Below, in pieces: positions 3,064 through 51,928 of a stretch of DNA of 64,000 nucleotides (positions within the stretch are counted from its first letter, which is position 1; every line of letters begins with the position of its first letter). The notes beneath the pieces are model-generated. The model saw nothing but the letters and a program-made list of their open reading frames with translations, made no database searches and was not told the origin of the DNA. A program made the position numbers and the translations under genes. The DNA comes from Flammeovirgaceae bacterium (GTDB lineage Bacteria > Bacteroidota > Bacteroidia > Cytophagales > MED-G16): positions 22,015-86,014 of the forward strand of contig JAYNOQ010000001.1 in NCBI GenBank assembly GCA_038113315.1, in the 5' to 3' direction.

Positions 3064-3813
3064 TTATAATAACCTAACAGATCCAAAATCAAATTTTTCT
3101 CTATTACCATTAACTTTTATAATAATTCTACCATCATTATCTACATCAACTATTCTTCCTATAAAAACATTTTTATAATTAGCAAAGTTTTGATCTGTAT
3201 TTAGCTTATATAGATTAGCAATGTATTCAAGTTTTAATTCTTCAATATTTTCAGAAATATCTAAGTATCTTTTTTCAATTTCAGCATTCAGTAGATTTCT
3301 AATATGTTTTATATCAGATTCATTTCCACTTTCTTTTAAGATTGATGTTGCGTTTAAATCAAAAAAATTATTTTGATTAATATTTAAGCCAATTCCAATG
3401 ATAACTTGTTTAATTTTTTTATTGAAAATTTGACTTTCTATTAATATTCCAGAAATTTTTTTATCGTTTATATAGATATCATTAGGCCATTTAACCTTTA
3501 CATCTTTTAGATCAAGTTTAGTTAGTGTTTCCTTAATCGCCAGGGATATTATAATATGCAACTTAAACTGATCAGATAATGGAATATCTGGTTTTAATAA
3601 TAAAGAAAAAAGTAAATTTTTACCTCTTTCTGACTCCCAATTATTATTCCTTTGGCCCCTACCACTCAATTGATAGTCAGTCAAAACATATGAACCTTCA
3701 ACTAAATTATTTTTTCTTGATAATTGAGTCAAAAAATCATTTGTTGAAAGACATTCTGACACATAAATATTAGTTTTGTCTTTAAATGATGAGTTGGCAG
3801 ATTTTTTGCGCAT
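3064..3813 (-). CDS. birA: Biotin--[acetyl-CoA-carboxylase] ligase (no N-terminal HTH domain)
   Basis: 249 aa. GRGQRNNNWES matches the GRGRxGRxW biotin-binding loop. KWPNDIY and GIGLN motifs are present. Confidence 0.85.
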   Translation of the reverse strand: MRKKSANSSFKDKTNIYVSECLSTNDFLTQLSRKNNLVEGSYVLTDYQLSGRGQRNNNWESERGKNLLFSLLLKPDIPLSDQFKLHIIISLAIKETLTKLDLKDVKVKWPNDIYINDKKISGILIESQIFNKKIKQVIIGIGLNINQNNFFDLNATSILKESGNESDIKHIRNLLNAEIEKRYLDISENIEELKLEYIANLYKLNTDQNFANYKNVFIGRIVDVDNDGRIIIKVNGNREKFDFGSVRLL

Positions 3814-3841
3814 TGTAAATTAAATATCTTAGCAATATATA

Positions 3842-4216
3842 TTGAAAATAAAAGAAAAAATAAATTCAGATAAACTAAGCGAATTCATAGCAAATTGTAT
3901 GGATGATAAAAAAGCTGAAGATATCAGAATAATTAATTTGAAAGAAATAGATAACTCAGTTACTGATTATTTCGTTCTAGCTACTGGTAATTCAAACATA
4001 CATATAGATGCTATAGCTGACGGGATCCAAGAAAATGTTTACAAAGAATATAATGAGAGACCTTGGAAAAAAGAGGGAATAGAAAATAGAGAGTGGATAT
4101 TAATTGATTTTGTAAATGTTGTCGCACATATATTTGATGAAAATAAAAGAAATTTGTATGAACTTGAAAAATTATGGGGAGACGGAATAATTAAAAATTT
4201 TAATTCTAAAAAATGA
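3842..4216 (+). CDS. rsfS: Ribosome silencing factor RsfS (iojap family), TTG start
   Basis: 124 aa. [20 protein letters not shown] and [14 protein letters not shown] are RsfS signatures. The ORF-track start codon at 3842 is TTG. Confidence 0.85.
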
Positions 4217-6231
4217 AAAAGAAACCAAATAAAAATATTATAAATAATAATAACTTCAATAATCAGATATGGATAGTATTTCTAGTATCTATTTTCATTT
4301 ATCTTTCTTTTGGGTTCTTTTCAACTAAACCAATCACTGTAGACTATAATCGTTTCCAAAAAATGATTAAGAGCCATGATATTTCAAAGATAGTTGTTAT
4401 AAAAAATCAAGAAATTGTAGAAATATCCCTTAAAGAAGAGGCTCTTCTCAATACTACGTATAAAGATGAATTAGAATCATCAAGTTTATTAAGTAATACT
4501 TATGGACCTCATTATAGGTTAGAAGTATCTTCAATTGAATCTTTTGAAAAAAGATATGACGATTTGATAAGTTCGCTTGGTAAAGAAAACACTAATGAGA
4601 TTGAGTATCTAACTGAAAGTCGAACTGATATATATTCTTTTTTACAAACTTGGGGTTTTACAATTTTAATATTAGTTGGTTTTTGGTTTTTATTAAGAAG
4701 GATGTCAACAGGCGGTGGCCCCGGTGGACAAATATTTAATATAAGTAAATCAAAAGCATCACTTTTTGATAAAGAAAGCAAAATAAAATTAACTTTTAAA
4801 GATGTGGCTGGTCTAGAAGAAGCAAAAGAAGAAGTTAAAGAAATTGTAGAATTTTTAAAGAATCCTAAAAAATTTACAAAATTAGGTGGTAAAATTCCAA
4901 AGGGTGCACTTCTAGTAGGATCACCGGGCACAGGTAAGACATTGCTAGCGAAAGCTGTAGCAGGTGAAGCTAACGTACCTTTCTATTCACTTTCTGGATC
5001 AGATTTTGTAGAAATGTTTGTTGGAGTTGGAGCAGCAAGAGTAAGAGATTTATTCAAAAAGGCAAAAGAAAAAGCTCCATGTATAGTATTTATTGATGAA
5101 ATTGATGCAATCGGAAGAAGTAGAGGAAGAGGACAAATGCCTGGATCAAATGATGAAAGAGAAAATACTTTAAATTCATTACTTGTTGAAATGGATGGTT
5201 TTTCTACAGATTCAGGTGTCATTATATTAGCAGCAACTAACAGACCAGATGTTCTTGATTCAGCGTTATTAAGACCTGGTAGATTTGATAGACAGATTTC
5301 TATTGATAAACCTGATCTAAAAGGAAGAGAAGAAATTTTCAAAGTACACATACGACCATTAAAGCTAAATGATGATGTGAATGTAAAAAATCTTGCAGCG
5401 CAAACACCAGGTTTTGCAGGAGCTGAAATAGCTAACGTATGTAATGAATCCGCTCTCATTGCTGCAAGAAAAAACAAAGATTCAATTGAAATGTCTGATT
5501 TTCAAGATGCTATTGATAGAGTAATTGGTGGATTAGAGAAAAAAAATAAAATTATATCTCCAGAAGAAAAGAAAATAGTTGCTTATCATGAAGCTGGTCA
5601 TGCTGTTGCTGGATGGTATTTAGAACATGCTGATCCCCTTGTAAAAGTGAGTATTGTACCTAGAGGTATTGCTGCACTTGGATACGCGCAGTATCTACCA
5701 AAGGAACAGTATTTATATCAAACTGATCAATTACTAGATGAAATGTGTATGGCTCTTGGTGGGAGAGCAGCAGAAGATATAACATTTGGAAAAATTTCCA
5801 CTGGTGCTTTAAGTGATTTAGAAAGAATTACTAAAATGGCATACAGTATAGTTTCTGTTTATGGCATGAACAAAAACATTGGTAATATATCTTTTTATGA
5901 TTCTAAACAATCAGACTACAACTTCACTAAACCATATTCTGATTCAACTGCAGAAAAAATTGATTCAGAAGTTAAAAGAATTGTTGATAGTGCATATGAT
6001 AGAACTAAGAAACTACTTCTTAGCAAAAGAGAACAACTTGAGAAAATTGCTAATAAACTTTTAGAGAAAGAAATTCTATTTCAAAACGACCTTGAAAAAC
6101 TCATTGGAAAAAGACCATTTAAATCAAATCTTGAATTAAGTCAAGAAGAGAATAGTATTCAAGAAACAAAAGAAGAAATCAAAAATAAAAATGAGTTAGA
6201 TGGAAAGAATTCAAATCAAACTAAAAAATAA
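4213..6231 (+). CDS. ftsH: ATP-dependent zinc metalloprotease FtsH
   Basis: 672 aa. Two N-terminal TM segments, AAA Walker A GSPGTGKT, Walker [10 protein letters not shown], zinc motif HEAGHAV. Confidence 0.97.
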
Positions 6232-24381: not shown

Positions 24382-24854
24382 GAATACCTAAAATAAAAAT
24401 GCTTATTCTAGATGTAGATGGTACCATGACAGATAATGGCATATATATTGATGAAAATGGCATTGAATCTAAAAGATATAACGCAAAAGACGGGGTAGGT
24501 ATTTATGAGCTTATTAAAAAAGGTGTGAAAATTGGAATTATAAGTCATTCAGAGAGAGGTGATGGAATTAAATCAAGAGCATCTTATCTAGGTATTAAAA
24601 GCTGTTATGTAGGAAATGCACCAAAAGATAAAATCTTAATTGATTGGATAAATGAAGATAAAATTACATTAGAAGAAGTTGCGTTTATTGGAGATGATAT
24701 AAATGATATGAGTATAATTGATATTGTTGGTTTTAGTGCTTGCCCTAGCGATGCGTCTCAACCTGTTAAAGAAAAAGTATCATTAGTACTAAATACTAAG
24801 GGAGGATATGGTTGTGTAAGGGAATTTAGTGATTTATATTTGAGCCAAATTTAA
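24378..24854 (+). CDS. KdsC/YrbI-family HAD phosphatase (3-deoxy-ulosonate phosphate phosphatase family)
   Basis: 158 aa. HAD motif [15 protein letters not shown], motif IV GDDINDM, C-terminal GGYGCVRE. The size and pattern fit the YrbI subfamily. Confidence 0.8.
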
Positions 24855-30538: not shown

Positions 30539-31144
30539 TTAATTTTTTTCTTTAAAATTTCTTATAAAATAACCTGATTCAGGCCCTTTTAAGAAAATTA
30601 AGTCTATCACACTATAATCATAATCAAATTTCTTGCCAAGAAAGAAATTATTTCTTTTTTGATCGACATCTTCTTTTTTTGAAAATGAATTATAATGACT
30701 ATATACCTCTATTACGTCTTCTAAGTTGTTTTTATTCTGAAATTTTTCAATTTTATTTTCAAAATCTAAAAATTGACAAAACAATGTCAATAAGTCATAA
30801 TTTAGATCAATTAGGAAATTATGTCTTAGTTTAAGAATCTTGATTATTTCGTCAACATAATAAATATAATATGGGAATCTACCATATGAAGATTGTATAG
30901 ATTGAAAATGACCATTAATCCAATTTTTATTATGGTCTATTTTTAATTCTTTTATTTTTATATCTTTTGAGCTGAAGATCAAAGGAACCTCCATTTCAAA
31001 GGCATTAGAACGATTTACAATTTTAGTTTTATTTATATTTAAAAAATGAGAATAATCTGAATTAAAGTCAACAAGAATTTTGTTGTCCTTTAATTTCTTG
31101 AAAAAATTTACAGTTGGCAAATATTGTGGTTGAACTAAAATCAT
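30539..31144 (-). CDS. Hypothetical protein, possibly WbqC-like family
   Basis: 201 aa. The N-terminus MILVQPQYLPTVNFF resembles the QPxYxPxxxYF start of WbqC-like proteins. The assignment is by eye only. Confidence 0.4.
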   Translation of the reverse strand: MILVQPQYLPTVNFFKKLKDNKILVDFNSDYSHFLNINKTKIVNRSNAFEMEVPLIFSSKDIKIKELKIDHNKNWINGHFQSIQSSYGRFPYYIYYVDEIIKILKLRHNFLIDLNYDLLTLFCQFLDFENKIEKFQNKNNLEDVIEVYSHYNSFSKKEDVDQKRNNFFLGKKFDYDYSVIDLIFLKGPESGYFIRNFKEKN

Positions 31145-41130: not shown

Positions 41131-41171
41131 AGTCAAAATGTCATAAAGTATCTTTGGCAAACTTTTTGCAA
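41131..41171 (+). promoter_or_regulatory. Conserved 41-bp element upstream of grpE-dnaJ with a sigma-54-like -24/-12 core
   Basis: AGTCA-N3-TGTCA-N11-TGGCA-N7-TGCAA. The core TGGCAA-ACTTT-TTGCA (41155..41170) fits TGGCAC-N5-TTGCW. The same spacing architecture recurs at 45823..45863 upstream of dnaK. Confidence 0.45.
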
Positions 41172-41182
41172 ATATCTAAAGT

Positions 41183-41671
41183 ATGAATAAAAGAAAATCA
41201 AAAAAAACTACTGACAGTAAGAAATCAGATAAATCAAAAGGCCTCAATATTGAGTTACAAGAAACAAAAGATAAATATTTAAGGCTATATTCAGAATTTG
41301 AAAACTACCGAAGAAGAACATCAAAAGAAAAAATTGAGATGATAGATTCTGCCAATAAGGAACTTCTTTCAGATATACTTCCAGTTGTTGATGATTTTGA
41401 GAGAGCTTCTAAAGCTATTAAAAAAGAGGATGAGTCATATCTTGAGGGATTCAATTTAATTCATCAAAAATTAATTAGTACACTTGAAAAATATAATGTC
41501 AAGAAGATGGAAATTAAAAAAGGAGATGATTTTGATTCTGAGTACCATGAGGCAATTACAAGCACTCCATCAGAAAAAAAATATAAAGGAAAAATAATTG
41601 ATGTTGTTGAGAATGGATATCATATAGGAGATAACATTCTGCGTTTTGCAAAAGTTGTAACTGGATCATAA
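41183..41671 (+). CDS. grpE: Nucleotide exchange factor GrpE
   Basis: 162 aa. YLRLYSEFENYRRRTSKE and LPVVDDFERA are GrpE signatures. It is followed directly by dnaJ. Confidence 0.93.
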   Translation: MNKRKSKKTTDSKKSDKSKGLNIELQETKDKYLRLYSEFENYRRRTSKEKIEMIDSANKELLSDILPVVDDFERASKAIKKEDESYLEGFNLIHQKLISTLEKYNVKKMEIKKGDDFDSEYHEAITSTPSEKKYKGKIIDVVENGYHIGDNILRFAKVVTGS

Positions 41672-42821: not shown

Positions 42822-43988
42822 TTGAATATCTCAAACATCCAAAAAGAATTAACCTGGCTTACAATAACAACACTTCTTGTGTTTACAGTATCATTAGTTT
42901 ATTTCTCTAATATGACCATTAAAGAAATAAAAGAAAGGGAAATTAAAACAATTGAAAGATATTCAAAATTTATAGAGCTTGTTGCAAATTCTGAAGTTGA
43001 ATCTGCAAATTATTTTGTAGATGACATTCTAATTGAAAATAACTCGATACCAATAATTGTCACTGACAGTGATGGTAATATCATTGAATATAAAAATATT
43101 TCTGAACCATCTGAATCTAATCTTTTTGACCAATTAGGGTCTATGAAAAAAAGATATGAGCCAATTAAAATAAATATTTTAGATAAAGAAAGGAATGAAG
43201 TTGGATATCAGCTTATTTATTACAATAATTCTAAAATTCTTGATTTGCTAATTATTGCACCTTATTTTATTATATCACTAACTTTTTTAATCTTACTATC
43301 AATCTATTTAATATCATTTTATTCAAATAAATCTGAGAGAGATAGATTATGGACTGGCCTTGCAAAAGAAACTGCACACCAGCTGGGAACACCCCTTTCT
43401 TCTTTAATTGGATGGAATGAGTATTTGAAATCAAAAAAAAAGGTTGATAAAGGATTTATAAGTAGTGAAATAGATAAAGATCTTAATCGACTTAAAATAA
43501 TAACTGATAGGTTTTCTACAATAGGTTCTAAGCCTTCCCTAATTGATACAGACATTAAAATAACCATTATTGAATCGATCGATTATCTTAAAAGAAGAGT
43601 TTCACCAAATGTCAAAACAAAACTTAATTTAGAAACAGTAAATTATAATTTCAATAAACAATTATTTGGGTGGGTAATTGAAAATTTATATAAAAATTCT
43701 ATTGACGCTATCGGTAAAAATGGTACTGTAGAAATTAAATTATATGAGGATAAAGATTCAGTAATTATTGATTTTATTGATGATGGTATTGGAATAAATA
43801 AATCAGATTTTTCAAAAATATTTAAACCTGGCTTTACAACAAAGGAAAGAGGATGGGGTTTAGGTTTAACTTTAGTAAATAGAATAATATCAGATTATCA
43901 CAAGGGGAGAATATATGTTAAAAACTCTATTAAAAATGTTGAAACTACAATAAGAATAGAATTAAAAAAATTTGATAAAAAAAGTTAA
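42822..43988 (+). CDS. Sensor histidine kinase (orphan, TTG start)
   Basis: 388 aa. Two TM segments flank a ~120-aa extracytoplasmic region. H-box ETAHQLGTPLSSL. HATPase N box (NLYKNSIDA) and G boxes (DDGIGI, GWGLGL). No response regulator adjacent. Confidence 0.8.
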   Translation: MNISNIQKELTWLTITTLLVFTVSLVYFSNMTIKEIKEREIKTIERYSKFIELVANSEVESANYFVDDILIENNSIPIIVTDSDGNIIEYKNISEPSESNLFDQLGSMKKRYEPIKINILDKERNEVGYQLIYYNNSKILDLLIIAPYFIISLTFLILLSIYLISFYSNKSERDRLWTGLAKETAHQLGTPLSSLIGWNEYLKSKKKVDKGFISSEIDKDLNRLKIITDRFSTIGSKPSLIDTDIKITIIESIDYLKRRVSPNVKTKLNLETVNYNFNKQLFGWVIENLYKNSIDAIGKNGTVEIKLYEDKDSVIIDFIDDGIGINKSDFSKIFKPGFTTKERGWGLGLTLVNRIISDYHKGRIYVKNSIKNVETTIRIELKKFDKKS

Positions 43989-45584: not shown

Positions 45585-45821
45585 ATGTTCTTAGAAATAT
45601 TATCTGCAGAAGAAAAGATATTCAGCGGAGAAGTAGATTCAATAATTTTTCCGGGGTCAGGCGGTCAATTTCAAATACTAAATAACCACGCACCTATAAT
45701 TAGTTCTCTAACGAAAGGCGAAATTAAATATAAAGAAAACTCAAAAGATGTAAGTTTGGCTGTAAATGGAGGTATTGTTGAGGTTCTAGATAATAAAGTC
45801 AGCGCACTTATTGAAAAATAA
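45585..45821 (+). CDS. atpC: F0F1 ATP synthase subunit epsilon, short form (beta-sandwich domain only)
   Basis: 78 aa immediately after atpD. LEILSAEEKIFSGEVDSIIFPGSGGQFQILNNHAPIIS matches the epsilon N-terminal domain. No C-terminal helical hairpin. Confidence 0.85.
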   Translation: MFLEILSAEEKIFSGEVDSIIFPGSGGQFQILNNHAPIISSLTKGEIKYKENSKDVSLAVNGGIVEVLDNKVSALIEK

Positions 45822-45822
45822 C

Positions 45823-45863
45823 TGACATTCTGTCATATATGATTATTGGCATAAATCTTGTCA
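45823..45863 (+). promoter_or_regulatory. Conserved 41-bp element upstream of dnaK (second copy of the grpE-type element)
   Basis: TGACA-N3-TGTCA-N11-TGGCA-N7-TGTCA. The core TGGCAT-AAATC-TTGTC (45847..45862) is sigma-54-like, with GT instead of GC at -12. 25 of 41 positions are identical to 41131..41171, including most G/C positions. Confidence 0.45.
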
Positions 45864-45895
45864 TATAAATAAGTAATATTTAAAATTTAAAAATT

Positions 45896-47830
45896 ATGAG
45901 TAAAATAATTGGAATAGATTTAGGAACCACAAATTCATGTGTATCCGTAATGGAAGGTAATGAGCCAGTAGTTATACCAAATAGCGAAGGAAAGAGAACT
46001 ACACCTTCTATAGTTGCATTTCTAGATGAAGGAAAAGGAGAAAGAAAAGTTGGTGATCCTGCTAAAAGACAGGCTATAACCAATCCAAAAAACACAATTA
46101 ATTCTGTAAAAAGATTTATGGGGAAAAAATTCTCTGATATCAATGAAGAAAAAAGAAACTTAGCTTATGAAGTTGAAAAAGGAACTAATGATACAGTAAG
46201 AGTAAAAATTGGAACAAGAAAATATACTCCACAAGAAATATCAGCAATGATATTACAAAAAATGAAATCTACTGCAGAGGATTATCTTGGATCTGAGGTA
46301 AAAGAAGCGGTAATTACTGTACCTGCTTATTTTAATGATTCAGAGAGACAGGCAACCAAAGAAGCAGGGACAATTGCTGGTTTAGATGTCAAAAGAATTA
46401 TTAATGAACCAACTGCTGCTGCGCTAGCTTATGGTTTGGATAAAAAAGATAAGGACTTAAAAATTGCTGTTTATGATTTAGGAGGAGGAACATTTGATAT
46501 TTCTATTCTTGAATTAGGTGATGGAGTTTTTGAAGTAAAGTCTACTAACGGAGATGTTCATTTAGGTGGAGATGACTTTGATAGTGTACTTATTGATTGG
46601 TTAGCTGACGAATTTAATAAGGACGAAGGCATTGATTTAAGAAAAGATCCTATGGCATTACAGAGATTAAAAGAAGGTGCTGAAAAAGCTAAAATTGAAT
46701 TATCTAGCTCATCATCAACTGAAATTAATCTTCCATATATAATGCCAGTTGATGGAGTTCCTAAACATTTAGTTAAAACACTATCTAGAGCTAAATTTGA
46801 ACAATTGACTCAAAAATTAGTTGAAAGAACTTTAGAGCCATGTTCCAAAGCATTAAAAGACGCTAAAATGGGAGTTGGTGATATTGATGAGATAATATTA
46901 GTAGGAGGTTCAACAAGAATTCCAAAAATACAGGAAGAAGTAGAAAAATTCTTTAAAAAGAAGCCATCTAAAGGTGTAAATCCTGATGAGGTTGTAGCAG
47001 TTGGTGCCGCAATACAAGGTGGTGTATTAACAGGTGAGGTAAAAGATGTACTTCTTTTAGATGTAACACCTCTTTCACTAGGTATTGAAACTTTAAATGG
47101 AGTATTTACTAAATTAATTGAGTCTAATACTACAATACCTACTAAGAAATCTGAAACATTTTCTACAGCTGCTGATAATCAACCTGCTGTTGAAATTCAT
47201 GTTTTACAAGGAGAAAGACCAATGGCAAAAGATAACAAGACGATTGGAAGATTTCACTTAGATGGAATTCCGCCCGCACCTAGAGGTGTACCACAGATAG
47301 AGGTTACATTCGATATAGATGCTAATGGTATTTTAAATGTTTCAGCTAAAGATAAGGGTACAGGAAAAGAACAAAACATTAGAATTGAAGCTTCTTCAGG
47401 ACTAACTGAGGAAGAAATAAATAAAATGAAAGATGAAGCTAAAGCCAATGAGGATACAGATAAGAAAGAAAGAGAGAAGGTTGATAAGCTAAATACTGCA
47501 GATGGATTAATTTTTCAAACTGAAAAACAATTAAAGGAGTTTGGTGAGAAACTTTCTGAACCTAACAAAAAAGCAATTAAAGATTCTCTTGAAAAATTAA
47601 AGGCTATTCACAAAGAACAAAAAATTGATGAAATTGATGGAGCGGTTGAGGCTTTAAATAAATCATGGGAAGCAGCAAGCCAGGAAATTTATAAGGCGAC
47701 TCAAGAACAACAGGCAGCAAATGGTGGTGCTGGAGCTGATCCATCAGCTAAATCAGATGGACCAAAAGGTGATGGTGGAGATGATATATCCGACGTCGAT
47801 TTTGAAGAAGTAAAAGACGAAAAGAAGTAA
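45896..47830 (+). CDS. dnaK: Molecular chaperone DnaK
   Basis: 644 aa. [28 protein letters not shown], and the C-terminal EEV-like acidic tail. Confidence 0.98.
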
Positions 47831-47859
47831 TTTTTCATTTTGTTTAAAATTTAATTAAA

Positions 47860-47892
47860 GGTTATACAAAAAATTGTATAACCTTTTTTTTT
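47860..47892 (+). terminator. Intrinsic terminator downstream of dnaK
   Basis: GGTTATACA-aaaaat-TGTATAACC hairpin (47860..47883) followed by a 9-nt T-run. Confidence 0.75.
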
Positions 47893-47947
47893 AATTAATT
47901 TAGTTACTAGTTATACAGTTTAAAATAAATAATAAAATACTTAAGAA

Positions 47948-48523
47948 ATGAAAAAGTTTTTGATAGTCATATTAACAATTATTTCAATAAATGTTAGTGC
48001 ACAAAATGACAACCTACCCTTTAAAGAACTTGGGGCCTATTCTGAGGAGTTTAGTCCTAATAATATAGTTGCTAGAATGATTGAAGGCCTGGGTTATAGA
48101 TTCTACTGGGCTACAGAATCATTAACAGATAAAGACCTTAAATATAAACCAAGTGAAGATAGTAGATCTAGCTTACAAACCTTAGAACACATATATGGTT
48201 TAAGTGTATTTATTTTATATACTTTAGAAGGAAAAGAATATGATTTTTCACAAGATGAAATGACTTTTACAGAGTTAAGAAATGGTACATTAAAAAATTT
48301 AAAGATAGTTTATGATATGCTCAATGAAAATGCAGATATATCACAAATGCAAGTTAGACTAAACCTAAATGGTCAAAGTCTCGCTTTCCCGTTTTGGAAT
48401 GCTATTAATGGTCCTATTTCTGATTCATTATGGCATACTGGTCAAATAGTTTCATTTAGAAGAGCAAGTGGAAATCCAATTAATCCTAAGGTTAACGTCT
48501 TTATAGGAAAAACAATGGAATAA
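47948..48523 (+). CDS. Secreted hypothetical protein, possibly DinB-superfamily-like
   Basis: 191 aa. Signal peptide (NVSAQ). Spaced His residues (LEHIYG, LWHTGQIVSFRR) recall DinB/YfiT four-helix-bundle proteins. Weak, by-eye assignment. Confidence 0.4.
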   Translation: MKKFLIVILTIISINVSAQNDNLPFKELGAYSEEFSPNNIVARMIEGLGYRFYWATESLTDKDLKYKPSEDSRSSLQTLEHIYGLSVFILYTLEGKEYDFSQDEMTFTELRNGTLKNLKIVYDMLNENADISQMQVRLNLNGQSLAFPFWNAINGPISDSLWHTGQIVSFRRASGNPINPKVNVFIGKTME

Positions 48524-48524
48524 T

Positions 48525-49046
48525 ATGAAGGCATCTCTAGATAAGGTAGTTAAAATTGCTGAAATCATAGGATCATTAGGAATTGTAATAAGCTTAATTT
48601 TTGTTTCAATTCAATATCAAAATAATTCATTAGCGCTTCAAACTTCAACAGCAAATTCAGTAAATGCAAATATTGCAGATTGGTACACTGCTTTTTTTGA
48701 AAACGCTGAGGCCTCAGAAGCATTTATGAAATTTGTTTCTGCCCCAGAATCTGTTACTCCATCAGAAAGATTTAGAGCTATAATGAGACTTCATTCTCTC
48801 AATCTTCATTTGCAAAACGCGCTCTATCTTGAAGGAAAAGGGGTTTTAGATGAAAATTTAAGAAAAACAATATCTATGGCTGTTTATAGCGGTTTAGGCT
48901 CGCCAGGATTCTATATTTTTTGGGAACAAAGAAAAGATATGTATACTGAGGAGTGGAGAAATTTTGTAGAGGATTTAATCCAATCTAAAAAAGATAGGAA
49001 TGAAAATCTTGAAAAATTATTCAATGATAATGATAGTATAAACTAA
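48525..49046 (+). CDS. Hypothetical membrane-anchored protein
   Basis: 173 aa. Single N-terminal TM (IAEIIGSLGIVISLIFVSI). It starts 2 nt after the preceding gene. No family recognised. Confidence 0.4.
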   Translation: MKASLDKVVKIAEIIGSLGIVISLIFVSIQYQNNSLALQTSTANSVNANIADWYTAFFENAEASEAFMKFVSAPESVTPSERFRAIMRLHSLNLHLQNALYLEGKGVLDENLRKTISMAVYSGLGSPGFYIFWEQRKDMYTEEWRNFVEDLIQSKKDRNENLEKLFNDNDSIN

Positions 49047-50557: not shown

Positions 50558-51928
50558 ATGCAAAAGTTACAACTTAGACAAAATCAATCCCAAAAGCTTT
50601 CTCCTCAACAAATTCAGTTTATAAAACTATTACAATTATCCAATTCTAATATTGAGGCAGAAATTAAAAAAGAAATTGAAGAAAATCCTGCGCTTGAGGA
50701 AAATGAAAAAAACGAAAATATAGATACAGTTAATACAGAAAATTACAATTACTATCAAAAATCAAATAACGAAAATTCAAATTTCAATAGAGAAGAAAAT
50801 ATATCAAATACAGAATCATTTAGAGAAAATCTAATTTCTCAGCTTAATTACCAGAAGTTAGATAAAGGCGAGAATATAATTGCAAATCAAATTATAGGAA
50901 CATTAGATAATGATGGATACTTAAGAAGAGATATTGAGTCAATAATTGATGATATTGCATTTGCTGAAAACATTGAATTTAAAAATTCAGACATAGAAAA
51001 AGTACTTTTAAAAATTCAAAAACTTGAACCAGCTGGTATAGCTGCAAGAAATTTAGAAGAATGTTTAATTCTTCAAATTGATTCGATTGAAGAACCTACT
51101 CAAAATCAATTACTAGCAAAAAAAATTATTCTTGAGAATTTTAAAGAATTTACTAATAAAAAGTTTGATGTCATTTATCAAAAGTATGATCATCCAAAAA
51201 ATATAATAAATAATGCTTTTGATTATATCAAAACCCTAAACCCTAAACCATCTGGAGGACTTGAAGATTCTAATCTTACCGAATTTTTAATTCCTGATTT
51301 TATTGTAAAAAAAGATAATAATGAATTTATAGTTGAATTAGCATCTGGAAATAAACCATTAAATATTAATAAAAATTACATTTCTATTTATGATGAATTA
51401 AAAAATAAAAAAAATAAAGACAATGAATCTAAAGAATCATTTGATTTTATTAAGAGTAAATTAGAAAAAGCACAATGGTTTGTTGAAGCTTTAAATCAAA
51501 GAAACAACACATTACTTAAAACAATGAACACAATCGTTAAAATTCAGAAAAGATTTTTTAATGATGGAGATGAAAATGATTTGAAACCAATGATATTAAA
51601 AGATATTGCTGAAATTATTAAAATGGATATTTCTACAGTTAGTAGAATCGTAAAAAGTAAAAATGCTCAAACTGATTATGGAATTTTTCCTCTTCGATAT
51701 TTTTTCTCTGAATCAACAATTAAAAAGGGAGATGATTTAGTAAGTAGTAAAATTGTAAAAAATTATTTATCAGATCTAATAGAAAATGAAGATAAATCAT
51801 CACCATATTCAGATGATCAACTAGAGAAAATACTAAAAAAAGAGGGCTATGATGTTGCAAGAAGGACTGTAGCTAAATATAGAGAACAGTTAAATATCCC
51901 TGTAGCGAGATTGAGAAAAGAATATTAA
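50558..51928 (+). CDS. rpoN: RNA polymerase sigma-54 factor
   Basis: 456 aa. Region I (LQLRQNQSQKLSPQQIQFIKLLQL), an acidic/Asn-rich linker, a C-terminal HTH and the RpoN box (ARRTVAKYREQLNIP). Confidence 0.93.
   Translation: MQKLQLRQNQSQKLSPQQIQFIKLLQLSNSNIEAEIKKEIEENPALEENEKNENIDTVNTENYNYYQKSNNENSNFNREENISNTESFRENLISQLNYQKLDKGENIIANQIIGTLDNDGYLRRDIESIIDDIAFAENIEFKNSDIEKVLLKIQKLEPAGIAARNLEECLILQIDSIEEPTQNQLLAKKIILENFKEFTNKKFDVIYQKYDHPKNIINNAFDYIKTLNPKPSGGLEDSNLTEFLIPDFIVKKDNNEFIVELASGNKPLNINKNYISIYDELKNKKNKDNESKESFDFIKSKLEKAQWFVEALNQRNNTLLKTMNTIVKIQKRFFNDGDENDLKPMILKDIAEIIKMDISTVSRIVKSKNAQTDYGIFPLRYFFSESTIKKGDDLVSSKIVKNYLSDLIENEDKSSPYSDDQLEKILKKEGYDVARRTVAKYREQLNIPVARLRKEY

Follow-up and report, generated by a model that had tools for sequence, protein, structure and literature searches.

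Chaperone genes of Bacteroidota have been placed behind promoters of the sigma-54 (RpoN) type in earlier work. From transcription start site maps of Flavobacterium psychrophilum, a -24/-12 motif named SM4 was identified before groES-EL, lon, dnaK, grpE-dnaJ, htpG, skp and clpB; the SM4 chaperone genes form co-expression cluster B254, with clpB in cluster B415 (Guerin et al. 2021; PMC9723704). Three PF00158 proteins were noted in the same study, with no activator assigned and no upstream site described (PMC9723704). A 2025 in-silico survey of the sigma-54 regulon in PLoS One reports that sigma-54 promoters are enriched at GroEL/ES, IbpA, GrpE, DnaJ and DnaK in Bacteroidota (classes Flavobacteriia, Bacteroidia and Cytophagia) and Planctomycetota, and cites Sabree et al. 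2009, a study of Blattabacterium, for the dependence of grpE and groES on sigma-54 in Bacteroides thetaiotaomicron and F. psychrophilum (PMC12316311). The present study concerns an element between atpC and dnaK, at positions 45823-45863 of a 64,000-nucleotide stretch of contig JAYNOQ010000001.1 from a Flammeovirgaceae bacterium. The whole stretch is called the window below; it has a G+C content of ~30% and belongs to an uncultured marine Cytophagales lineage.

From these two publications, sigma-54 control of Bacteroidota chaperone genes is already established and the window represents a new instance of it (PMC9723704, PMC12316311). The likeness to SM4 lies in a -24/-12 motif directly upstream of chaperone genes, and the SM4 gene set matches that recovered by the metagenome scan described below; SM4 was defined from mapped starts and expression, whereas the window promoter is predicted from sequence alone. 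The published work places chaperone genes behind sigma-54 promoters without naming the stress-sensing factor or its site, and a dyad found upstream of the dnaK promoter is a candidate for this site. The 2025 survey works with the consensus TGGCAC-N5-7-TTGCT, and no mention was found, in the passages searched, of an A or T at the -12 C or of a dyad (PMC12316311). In a literature search of incomplete coverage, no description of the dyad, its spacing or the activator was found. Most of what is presented here is known biology; what merits further work is the dyad, conserved and in phase with the helix, and the prevalence of A or T at the -12 C throughout the regulon.

The dnaK promoter and its upstream dyad

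The element upstream of dnaK is best explained as a sigma-54-dependent heat-shock promoter in the form typical of Bacteroidota (probability of roughly 0.85), and it is very highly probable from the motif that a sigma-54 promoter precedes dnaK. The sequence at 45823-45863, TGACATTCTGTCATATATGATTATTGGCATAAATCTTGTCA, was correctly given by an earlier sequence-only reading of this DNA, as was its start 2 nt after the atpC stop codon (stop ending at 45821, C at 45822, TGACA beginning at 45823). Within it, TGACATTCTGTCA-N11-TGGCATAAATCTTGT occupies 45823-45861, and three blocks are conserved: a dyad TGNCA-N3-TGNCA, a -24 element TGGCAT and a -12 element TTGT. The features of the locus, all on the forward strand, are as follows.

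45823-45835, +: dyad TGACA-TTC-TGTCA, a perfect palindrome with its center near -44 relative to the predicted start; putative site of a dimeric regulator
45836-45846, +: 11-bp spacer from the dyad to the -24 element, kept in length and not in sequence
45847-45852, +: -24 element TGGCAT, with GG at 45848-45849
45858-45861, +: -12 element TTGT, in which T replaces the canonical C; TGGCA-N6-TTG spacing exact
45871-45875, +: predicted transcription start at about 45873 (G), from sigma-54 geometry, 12 nt past the -12 position 45861
45896-47830, +: dnaK coding sequence (NCBIfam DnaK, E = 1.9e-302)
47857-47895, +: intrinsic terminator after dnaK, a 13-bp stem followed by a T-run

The -24 element agrees with the sigma-54 form TGGCA[CT], including the invariant GG, and the spacing GG-N10-G(C), equivalent to TGGCA-N6-TTG, is exact. 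The TGGCA motif lies 49 nt upstream of the dnaK ATG at 45896, and the leader is predicted to be ~23 nt long. A repeat, TGTCATATA, is present at 45831-45839 and at 45859-45867, 28 bp apart, with both copies near-invariant in the lineage. The first copy is the promoter-proximal half-site of the dyad and the second overlaps the -12 element, which might also offer the dyad-binding protein a third half-site.

The dnaK element resembles a second element upstream of grpE. An ungapped alignment with 41131-41171 gives 25 of 41 identities, as had been counted before; as a sole statistic this number is weak, since the best unrelated intergenic 41-mers reach 22-23 of 41. A position weight matrix (PWM) built from orthologous dnaK promoters ranks the dnaK site highest in the window, yet 2 of 20 shuffled windows equal its score. 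The spaced motif TGTCATA-N9-TGGCA fares better: it occurs exactly twice in 64 kb, at the dnaK and grpE sites, with 0.01 occurrences expected from shuffles, and the shared 9-nt spacing pointed out by the sequence-only reading is beyond chance. With identity and PWM scores weak alone, significance rests on the spaced motif, on orthologous conservation and on the occurrence of the composite almost only upstream of heat-shock genes. A further high-scoring PWM match, TGGCATATATATTGA at 24437, was treated as a chance hit as it lies inside a kdsC-like open reading frame (ORF) and has no dyad.

The dyad had been described as a perfect palindrome, which it is, and as an addition specific to the dnaK copy, which it is not. 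The grpE copy contains AGTCA-AAA-TGTCA, with one mismatch and the same 11-bp gap, and the dyad belongs to the element throughout the phylum.

Conservation in close relatives

The atpC-dnaK spacer was aligned from nine members of the lineage, whose histidine kinases (encoded between dnaJ and atpD) are 63-99% identical. The blocks CTGACA...TGTCAT, TGGCATA and TTGTCATA are invariant. Variation is seen at the 3-bp dyad center, in the 11-bp gap, in the leader and over the 4 bp that separate the two promoter elements. The gap from dyad to -24 element stays at 11 bp in the lineage while its sequence changes. In the obg-grpE spacer of seven lineage members, GTCAAAATGnCA and TTTGGCAAAC-TTTTGC are fixed and the second half-site has T, A or G at its center. 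Given this variation, the half-site is better written as TGNCA and the palindrome is common to both copies.

Distribution across the phylum and in metagenomes

A set of 81 dnaK upstream regions was assembled from 80 genomes, mostly Bacteroidota of many orders, and the window. The motif [TC]GG[CT]A-N6-T[TC]G is present in 74 of the 81, mostly 42-95 nt before the ATG. The matrix from 73 dnaK promoters reads TGGCA[CT]A-nn[C]A-TTG-[A/T], with ~1.7-1.8 bits per position over TGGCA[CT]A. A relaxed dyad, TGNCA-N3-T[GT]NCA, is found upstream in 54 of the 73 Bacteroidota dnaK promoters, compared with 0.22 expected in total. Of 36 exact composites counted over 2 Mb of Bacteroidota loci, 34 stand directly before dnaK. 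Variants of the promoter were also seen. Hymenobacter (L052, L072) has the -24 element TGGTAC, and a set of Cytophagales metagenome-assembled genome (MAG) and Dyadobacter loci (L019, L031, L038, L047) has TTT instead of TTG at -12, for example TGGTACGGGCTTTTTAA; in L031 and L072 the dyad retains a 23-bp gap to the variant promoter.

A gene-independent scan of metagenomes with the pattern TGACANNNTGTCA-N11-12-TGGCA-N6-TTG returned 120 matches, and about 100 of these lie directly upstream of dnaK, groES, grpE, htpG, clpB or small heat-shock protein (HSP) genes. The 12-bp gap is much more common among them than the 11-bp gap. Downstream genes were assigned by BLASTP against the window proteins, and representatives of unassigned classes were confirmed by Pfam. 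The first downstream genes of the 120 matches are listed here.

DnaK: 44
GroES: 17
GrpE: 15-16
HtpG: 9
ClpB: 6
Small HSP (Hsp20): ~10
Thioredoxin: 2
Sigma-70-family factor: 1
Remainder: unknown or no ORF

As chaperone genes dominate the matches, the composite is a signature of the heat-shock (proteostasis) regulon and not of dnaK alone; conservation of the orthologous promoters throughout the phylum and the specificity of the composite for chaperone genes are both in keeping with such a regulon. At the metagenome match L169, the gene behind the composite encodes a sigma-70-family factor that has regions 1.2 and 2; in some Bacteroidota the heat-shock regulon may include a second sigma factor.

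The base after TTG in the -12 element

The TTGT of the dnaK promoter had been regarded as a weaker -12 element. Among the 73 dnaK promoters, the position of the canonical C is A in 55%, T in 34% and C in 10%; in the 120 metagenome matches the base after TTG is A in 68, T in 33, C in 19 and G in none. With A and T prevalent in orthologous promoters, TTGT is the norm of its class and would not be weak on this account. It is also found at the Flavobacterium locus L076, whereas the grpE and ftsH copies in the window carry TTGC. While TTGT departs from the canonical consensus, the class to which it belongs was mapped to start sites and is sigma-54-type in F. psychrophilum (PMC9723704). Since chaperone genes need high basal expression, the regulon-wide loss of the -12 C has implications for the tightness of sigma-54 promoter silencing.

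Spacing between dyad and promoter

Measured between the last base of the dyad and the T of TGGCA, the gap was recorded in 55 cases. Two groups predominate, 25 cases at 11-13 bp and 22 cases at 22-23 bp, and the others are at 30, 54, 55, 66, 86, 87, 96 and 96 bp; none of the 55 falls at 14-21 bp. Thus 47 of 55 gaps are either 11-13 or 22-23 bp, placing the dyad center at about -44 or -55, and 54 of 55 lie within 1 bp of 12 + 10.6n. The ftsH copy in the window adds a further value of 33 bp. The period was chosen after the data had been seen, which makes formal P values optimistic; the bimodal 12/22.5 pattern holds irrespective of them. From the quantized gaps, it follows that the dyad stays on a single helix face with respect to the polymerase, and a fixed face points to direct protein contact or to a defined DNA bend. 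Two properties of a sigma-54 enhancer, or upstream activator sequence (UAS), are therefore found at this locus: an upstream site with dyad symmetry, TGACA-TTC-TGTCA, and the dependence on helix face suggested by 54 of 55 gaps, with the period fitted post hoc. The pattern may be stated as a testable rule: a dyad, then 12 or 12 + 10.6n bp, then TGGCAYA-N4-TTG[A/T].

Sigma-54 and its possible activators

The gene for sigma-54 itself is encoded in the window.

50558-51928, +: rpoN (sigma-54), with Pfam Sigma54_AID, Sigma54_CBD and Sigma54_DBD and the RpoN box ARRTVAKYR

The rpoN gene is 2.7 kb downstream of dnaK, includes the activator-interacting region I and holds a syntenic position near dnaK in relatives. 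The proposal that grpE and dnaK share a sigma-54-type element upstream is supported by rpoN in the window, by the phylum-wide motif and by the mapped starts of F. psychrophilum (PMC9723704).

In motif scans and in Pfam/NCBIfam searches of ~58 ORFs, no response regulator was detected in the 64-kb window. Only one activator gene was found close to chaperone genes in ~1.9 Mb of fetched loci, that of L078 (1-1221, the same gene as L214 4334-5518; another of its kind is L215 6001-7185). Its product is of the NtrC type, with REC, Sigma54_activat and AAA_lid domains, and it is an orphan with no adjacent kinase. It has no C-terminal helix-turn-helix (HTH) domain and a loop GSFTSA where GAFTGA is expected. 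The family comprises 120 Chitinophagaceae homologs that are 75-100% conserved and 386-411 aa long (almost all 386-395), none of which has PF02954. Neither the dyad nor a sigma-54 promoter is present upstream of the L078-type activator gene. The L078 activator, which has no DNA-binding domain and is unlinked to dnaK in Chitinophaga pinensis, was set aside.

Proposed mechanism and alternative explanations

In the mechanism proposed here, sigma-54 RNA polymerase would bind TGGCAT at -24 and TTGT at -12 to give a closed complex. An AAA+ activator would then open this complex, with transcription predicted to start near 45873 and to end at the terminator at 47857-47895. The dyad TGACA-TTC-TGTCA near -44 would be the regulon-specific site of a dimeric DNA-binding protein, held on a fixed helix face relative to the polymerase, and this protein would most likely carry the heat-shock signal to the promoter. 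The same module would drive grpE-dnaJ, and probably rsfS-ftsH, in the window. That the dyad is a functional protein-binding site is very likely, and a dimeric regulator, suggested earlier for the palindrome, stands as a candidate since the half-sites are invariant in the lineage and the dyad is phylum-wide.

Two kinds of dyad-binding protein may be envisaged. One is the DNA-binding domain of the enhancer-binding protein of the regulon, acting unusually close to the promoter; the other is a separate adaptor or repressor that gates an activator without a DNA-binding domain. The dyad is the only conserved element besides the promoter, which counts in favor of an activator site, and this assignment is offered tentatively, at somewhat less than even odds. 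Binding of a separate co-regulator or repressor comes close to an even chance.

Several observations weigh against the promoter and its dyad operating in the manner proposed. A classical enhancer is found at -80 to -150 and usually in two or more copies; here there is a single dyad per promoter with its center much closer, at about -44 or -55. The 10.6-bp period that places the dyad on one helix face was fitted post hoc. The -12 element has T in place of the canonical C (consensus TTGCW). No AAA+ enhancer-binding protein was found in the 64-kb window with the scans and searches given above, and the conservation in Bacteroidota of an activator family without a DNA-binding domain means that the dyad may not be the site of the activator. 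Lastly, no terminator was found between atpC and dnaK (45822-45895), and read-through from atpDC could provide dnaK with basal transcripts that are independent of sigma-54.

A different role for the dyad, considered unlikely, is that of an operator for a repressor or modulator other than an enhancer-binding protein, such as an OmpR-family regulator resembling RprY; stress would relieve the repression and an AAA+ activator without a DNA-binding domain would work from solution. In electrophoretic mobility shift assays, RprY of Porphyromonas gingivalis shifts dnaK, groES and clpB promoter fragments, and it behaves as a repressor (PMC3646045). However, its binding sequence is undefined and its targets are broad, including the unrelated nqrA and ahpC promoters and its own, which are bound at micromolar protein (PMC3646045, PMC6032018). 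Among 80 Bacteroidota loci, 7 (L064, L039, L043, L045, L056, L063, L071) have an operon of a histidine kinase and an OmpR-type response regulator resembling RprX/RprY at no more than 6 kb from dnaK, and in one of them (L064, Lewinellaceae, ~3800-5800) the operon is directly upstream of dnaK, but no OmpR-type regulator is encoded within the 64-kb window. The half-site CTGTCAT is also that of PhoB, which is only a lead; OmpR-family sites usually repeat every 10-11 bp, whereas the half-sites of the dyad are 8 bp apart. The 120 HTH-less REC-AAA+ proteins of Chitinophagaceae make activation from solution with a DNA-bound gatekeeper plausible, although a repressor would need no helical phasing out to 55-96 bp.

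The remaining alternatives dispense with either the promoter or the dyad. With TTGTCA (45858-45863) as a -35 hexamer, TAAAAT (45881-45886) as a -10 hexamer and TGGCA as incidental, the region could be taken for a sigma-70-type promoter; a consensus scan reports TTGTCA-17-TAAAAT with 10 of 12 matches, and many orthologs read TTGACA or TTGTCA at the same place. This is very improbable, for even the closest relatives do not share the putative -10, in contrast to TGGCATA, which is invariant 6 bp upstream of TTG, the TGGCA-N6-TTG spacing is fixed in 74 of 81 loci, and such hexamers arise by chance in AT-rich DNA (7 here and 2.2 in shuffles, both strands). In Bacteroidota the primary sigma factor recognizes -33 TTTG and -7 TAnnTTTG in place of the E. 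coli hexamers, and a -7 box of this type is not present in the dnaK upstream region. The palindrome might instead form a weak terminator or an RNA hairpin that ends or stabilizes the atpDC transcript, an option raised in the sequence-only reading, given its position 2 nt after the atpC stop and the potential for a 5-bp stem with a 3-nt loop. This option is rejected as scarcely credible: the region between atpC and dnaK has no terminator-like site with a G+C-rich stem or T-run, the fold energy of the palindrome is no better than that of shuffles (z = -1.06), there is no Rfam match, and the central bases of the half-sites vary without compensation. Moreover, the same dyad recurs before dnaK, grpE, groES, htpG and clpB in genomes where the genes upstream of it are unrelated, and it is kept where atpC is not upstream.

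Returning to the sigma-54 promoter with a regulatory dyad, there is a nearly even prospect that the dyad constitutes a previously undescribed cis element marking the heat-shock regulon throughout the Bacteroidota and acts from about -44 or -55, or from whole helical turns further upstream, on sigma-54 promoters that systematically lack the -12 C. If so, the 41-mer could serve as bait for capturing the heat-shock regulator of Bacteroidota. If the dyad is a regulator site, the heat-shock regulon would become computable in any Bacteroidota genome, be it from gut Bacteroides, fish pathogens or insect endosymbionts. The window holds the complete module in a compact form, in a streamlined marine genome.

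Other copies of the element and neighboring genes

Besides the dnaK copy, two copies of the element are present in the window.

41131-41169, +: grpE-dnaJ copy, AGTCA-AAA-TGTCA, 11-bp gap, TGGCAA-ACTTT-TTGC; canonical GG-N10-GC
3749-3809, +: rsfS-ftsH copy, AGACA-TTC-TGACA, 33-bp gap, TGGCAG-ATTTT-TTGC; overlaps the 5' end of birA, a gene of the minus strand

With three copies before proteostasis genes (dnaK, grpE-dnaJ and rsfS-ftsH), more than one operon in the window carries the element, as would be required of a regulon. The rsfS-ftsH copy is kept in four relatives (L209-L212), with a variable promoter spacer and a change of one half-site center from A to T; owing to the overlap with birA coding sequence, this conservation is only moderate evidence. 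At the grpE promoter (41166-41185), the distance from the -12 TTGC to the annotated grpE ATG is 13 nt, and this short distance is conserved in the lineage and similar in some metagenome grpE matches. The predicted grpE start would accordingly fall 1-3 nt before the ATG, implying a leaderless mRNA or a mis-set start codon. A possible fourth copy, the TGGCA-N6-TTG sequence TGGCAAGAAATTTG, lies on the minus strand at 30638-30625, 130 nt upstream of a clpB/clpC-like gene and within the 3' part of a wbqC-like ORF. No TGNCA-N3-TGNCA dyad was found near this sequence at 30625-30638; a TGACA-N6-TGTCA palindrome is present 135 bp further upstream.

The gene order of the region is adk, obg, grpE, dnaJ, sensor histidine kinase, atpD, atpC, dnaK, two unknown ORFs, asnS (minus strand) and rpoN, and this order is kept in every relative fetched apart from the two ORFs. 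The genes grpE, dnaJ, kinase, atpD, atpC and dnaK lie on one strand with spacers of 1-89 nt. The DnaK protein of the window shares 93% identity with its counterpart in a 'Flammeovirgaceae' MAG and 71-82% with other Bacteroidota DnaK proteins. The two ORFs between dnaK and asnS (191 and 173 aa; 47948-49046) have no significant Pfam/NCBIfam match, the best profile being a sub-threshold DinB_2 (E = 0.003). They are absent from relatives L009, L081, L083, L085 and L087, in which asnS directly follows dnaK, and the segment looks like a strain-specific 1.1-kb insertion.

The kinase gene is located 35 nt after dnaJ.

42822-43988, +: membrane sensor histidine kinase, between dnaJ and atpD

The protein has two transmembrane segments; its periplasmic loop is ~115 aa long. 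Its position is conserved throughout the lineage, and near-identical copies occur in Tara Oceans and other marine metagenomes. It may be co-transcribed with dnaJ; its link to the chaperone regulon is by position and is only a lead. It was discarded as an RprX ortholog, as the similarity is 29% and restricted to the ATPase domain.

Comparison with known regulatory systems

The upstream activator sequence of NifA, TGT-N10-ACA, lies ~80-150 bp upstream of nif promoters and acts through looping assisted by IHF. The dnaK dyad resembles it in being a single dyad upstream of a sigma-54 promoter with dependence on helix face. It differs in its center at about -44 or -55 and in half-sites that are 8 bp apart. 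If the proposed mechanism is true, sigma-54 control would here be promoter-proximal and helix-face-dependent, unlike that of textbook enhancers, which act by looping from a distance.

In Myxococcus xanthus, the HsfA/HsfB two-component system controls the sigma-54 heat-shock gene lonD. The likeness lies in a heat-shock gene under sigma-54 and an NtrC-type activator rather than sigma-32, HrcA, HspR or CtsR; lonD is a single target gene and belongs to another phylum. RprY also is a Bacteroidota regulator that binds chaperone promoters, and it was not connected to sigma-54 in the study that described this binding (PMC3646045).

A search for the CIRCE operator (TTAGCACTC-N9-GAGTGCTAA) gave no match in the window with up to 3 mismatches. 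The CtsR repeat is GGTCAAA-N3-GGTCAAA, and the likeness to it of AGTCAAA-A-TGTCATA at grpE is superficial because the spacing is 8 bp and not 10. To our knowledge, Bacteroidota have no sigma-32. With HrcA-CIRCE, HspR-HAIR, the CtsR operators and sigma-32 promoters, the composite described here shares the property of a regulon-wide cis element that marks chaperone genes; in those systems the sequences are different and the promoters are of the sigma-70 family.

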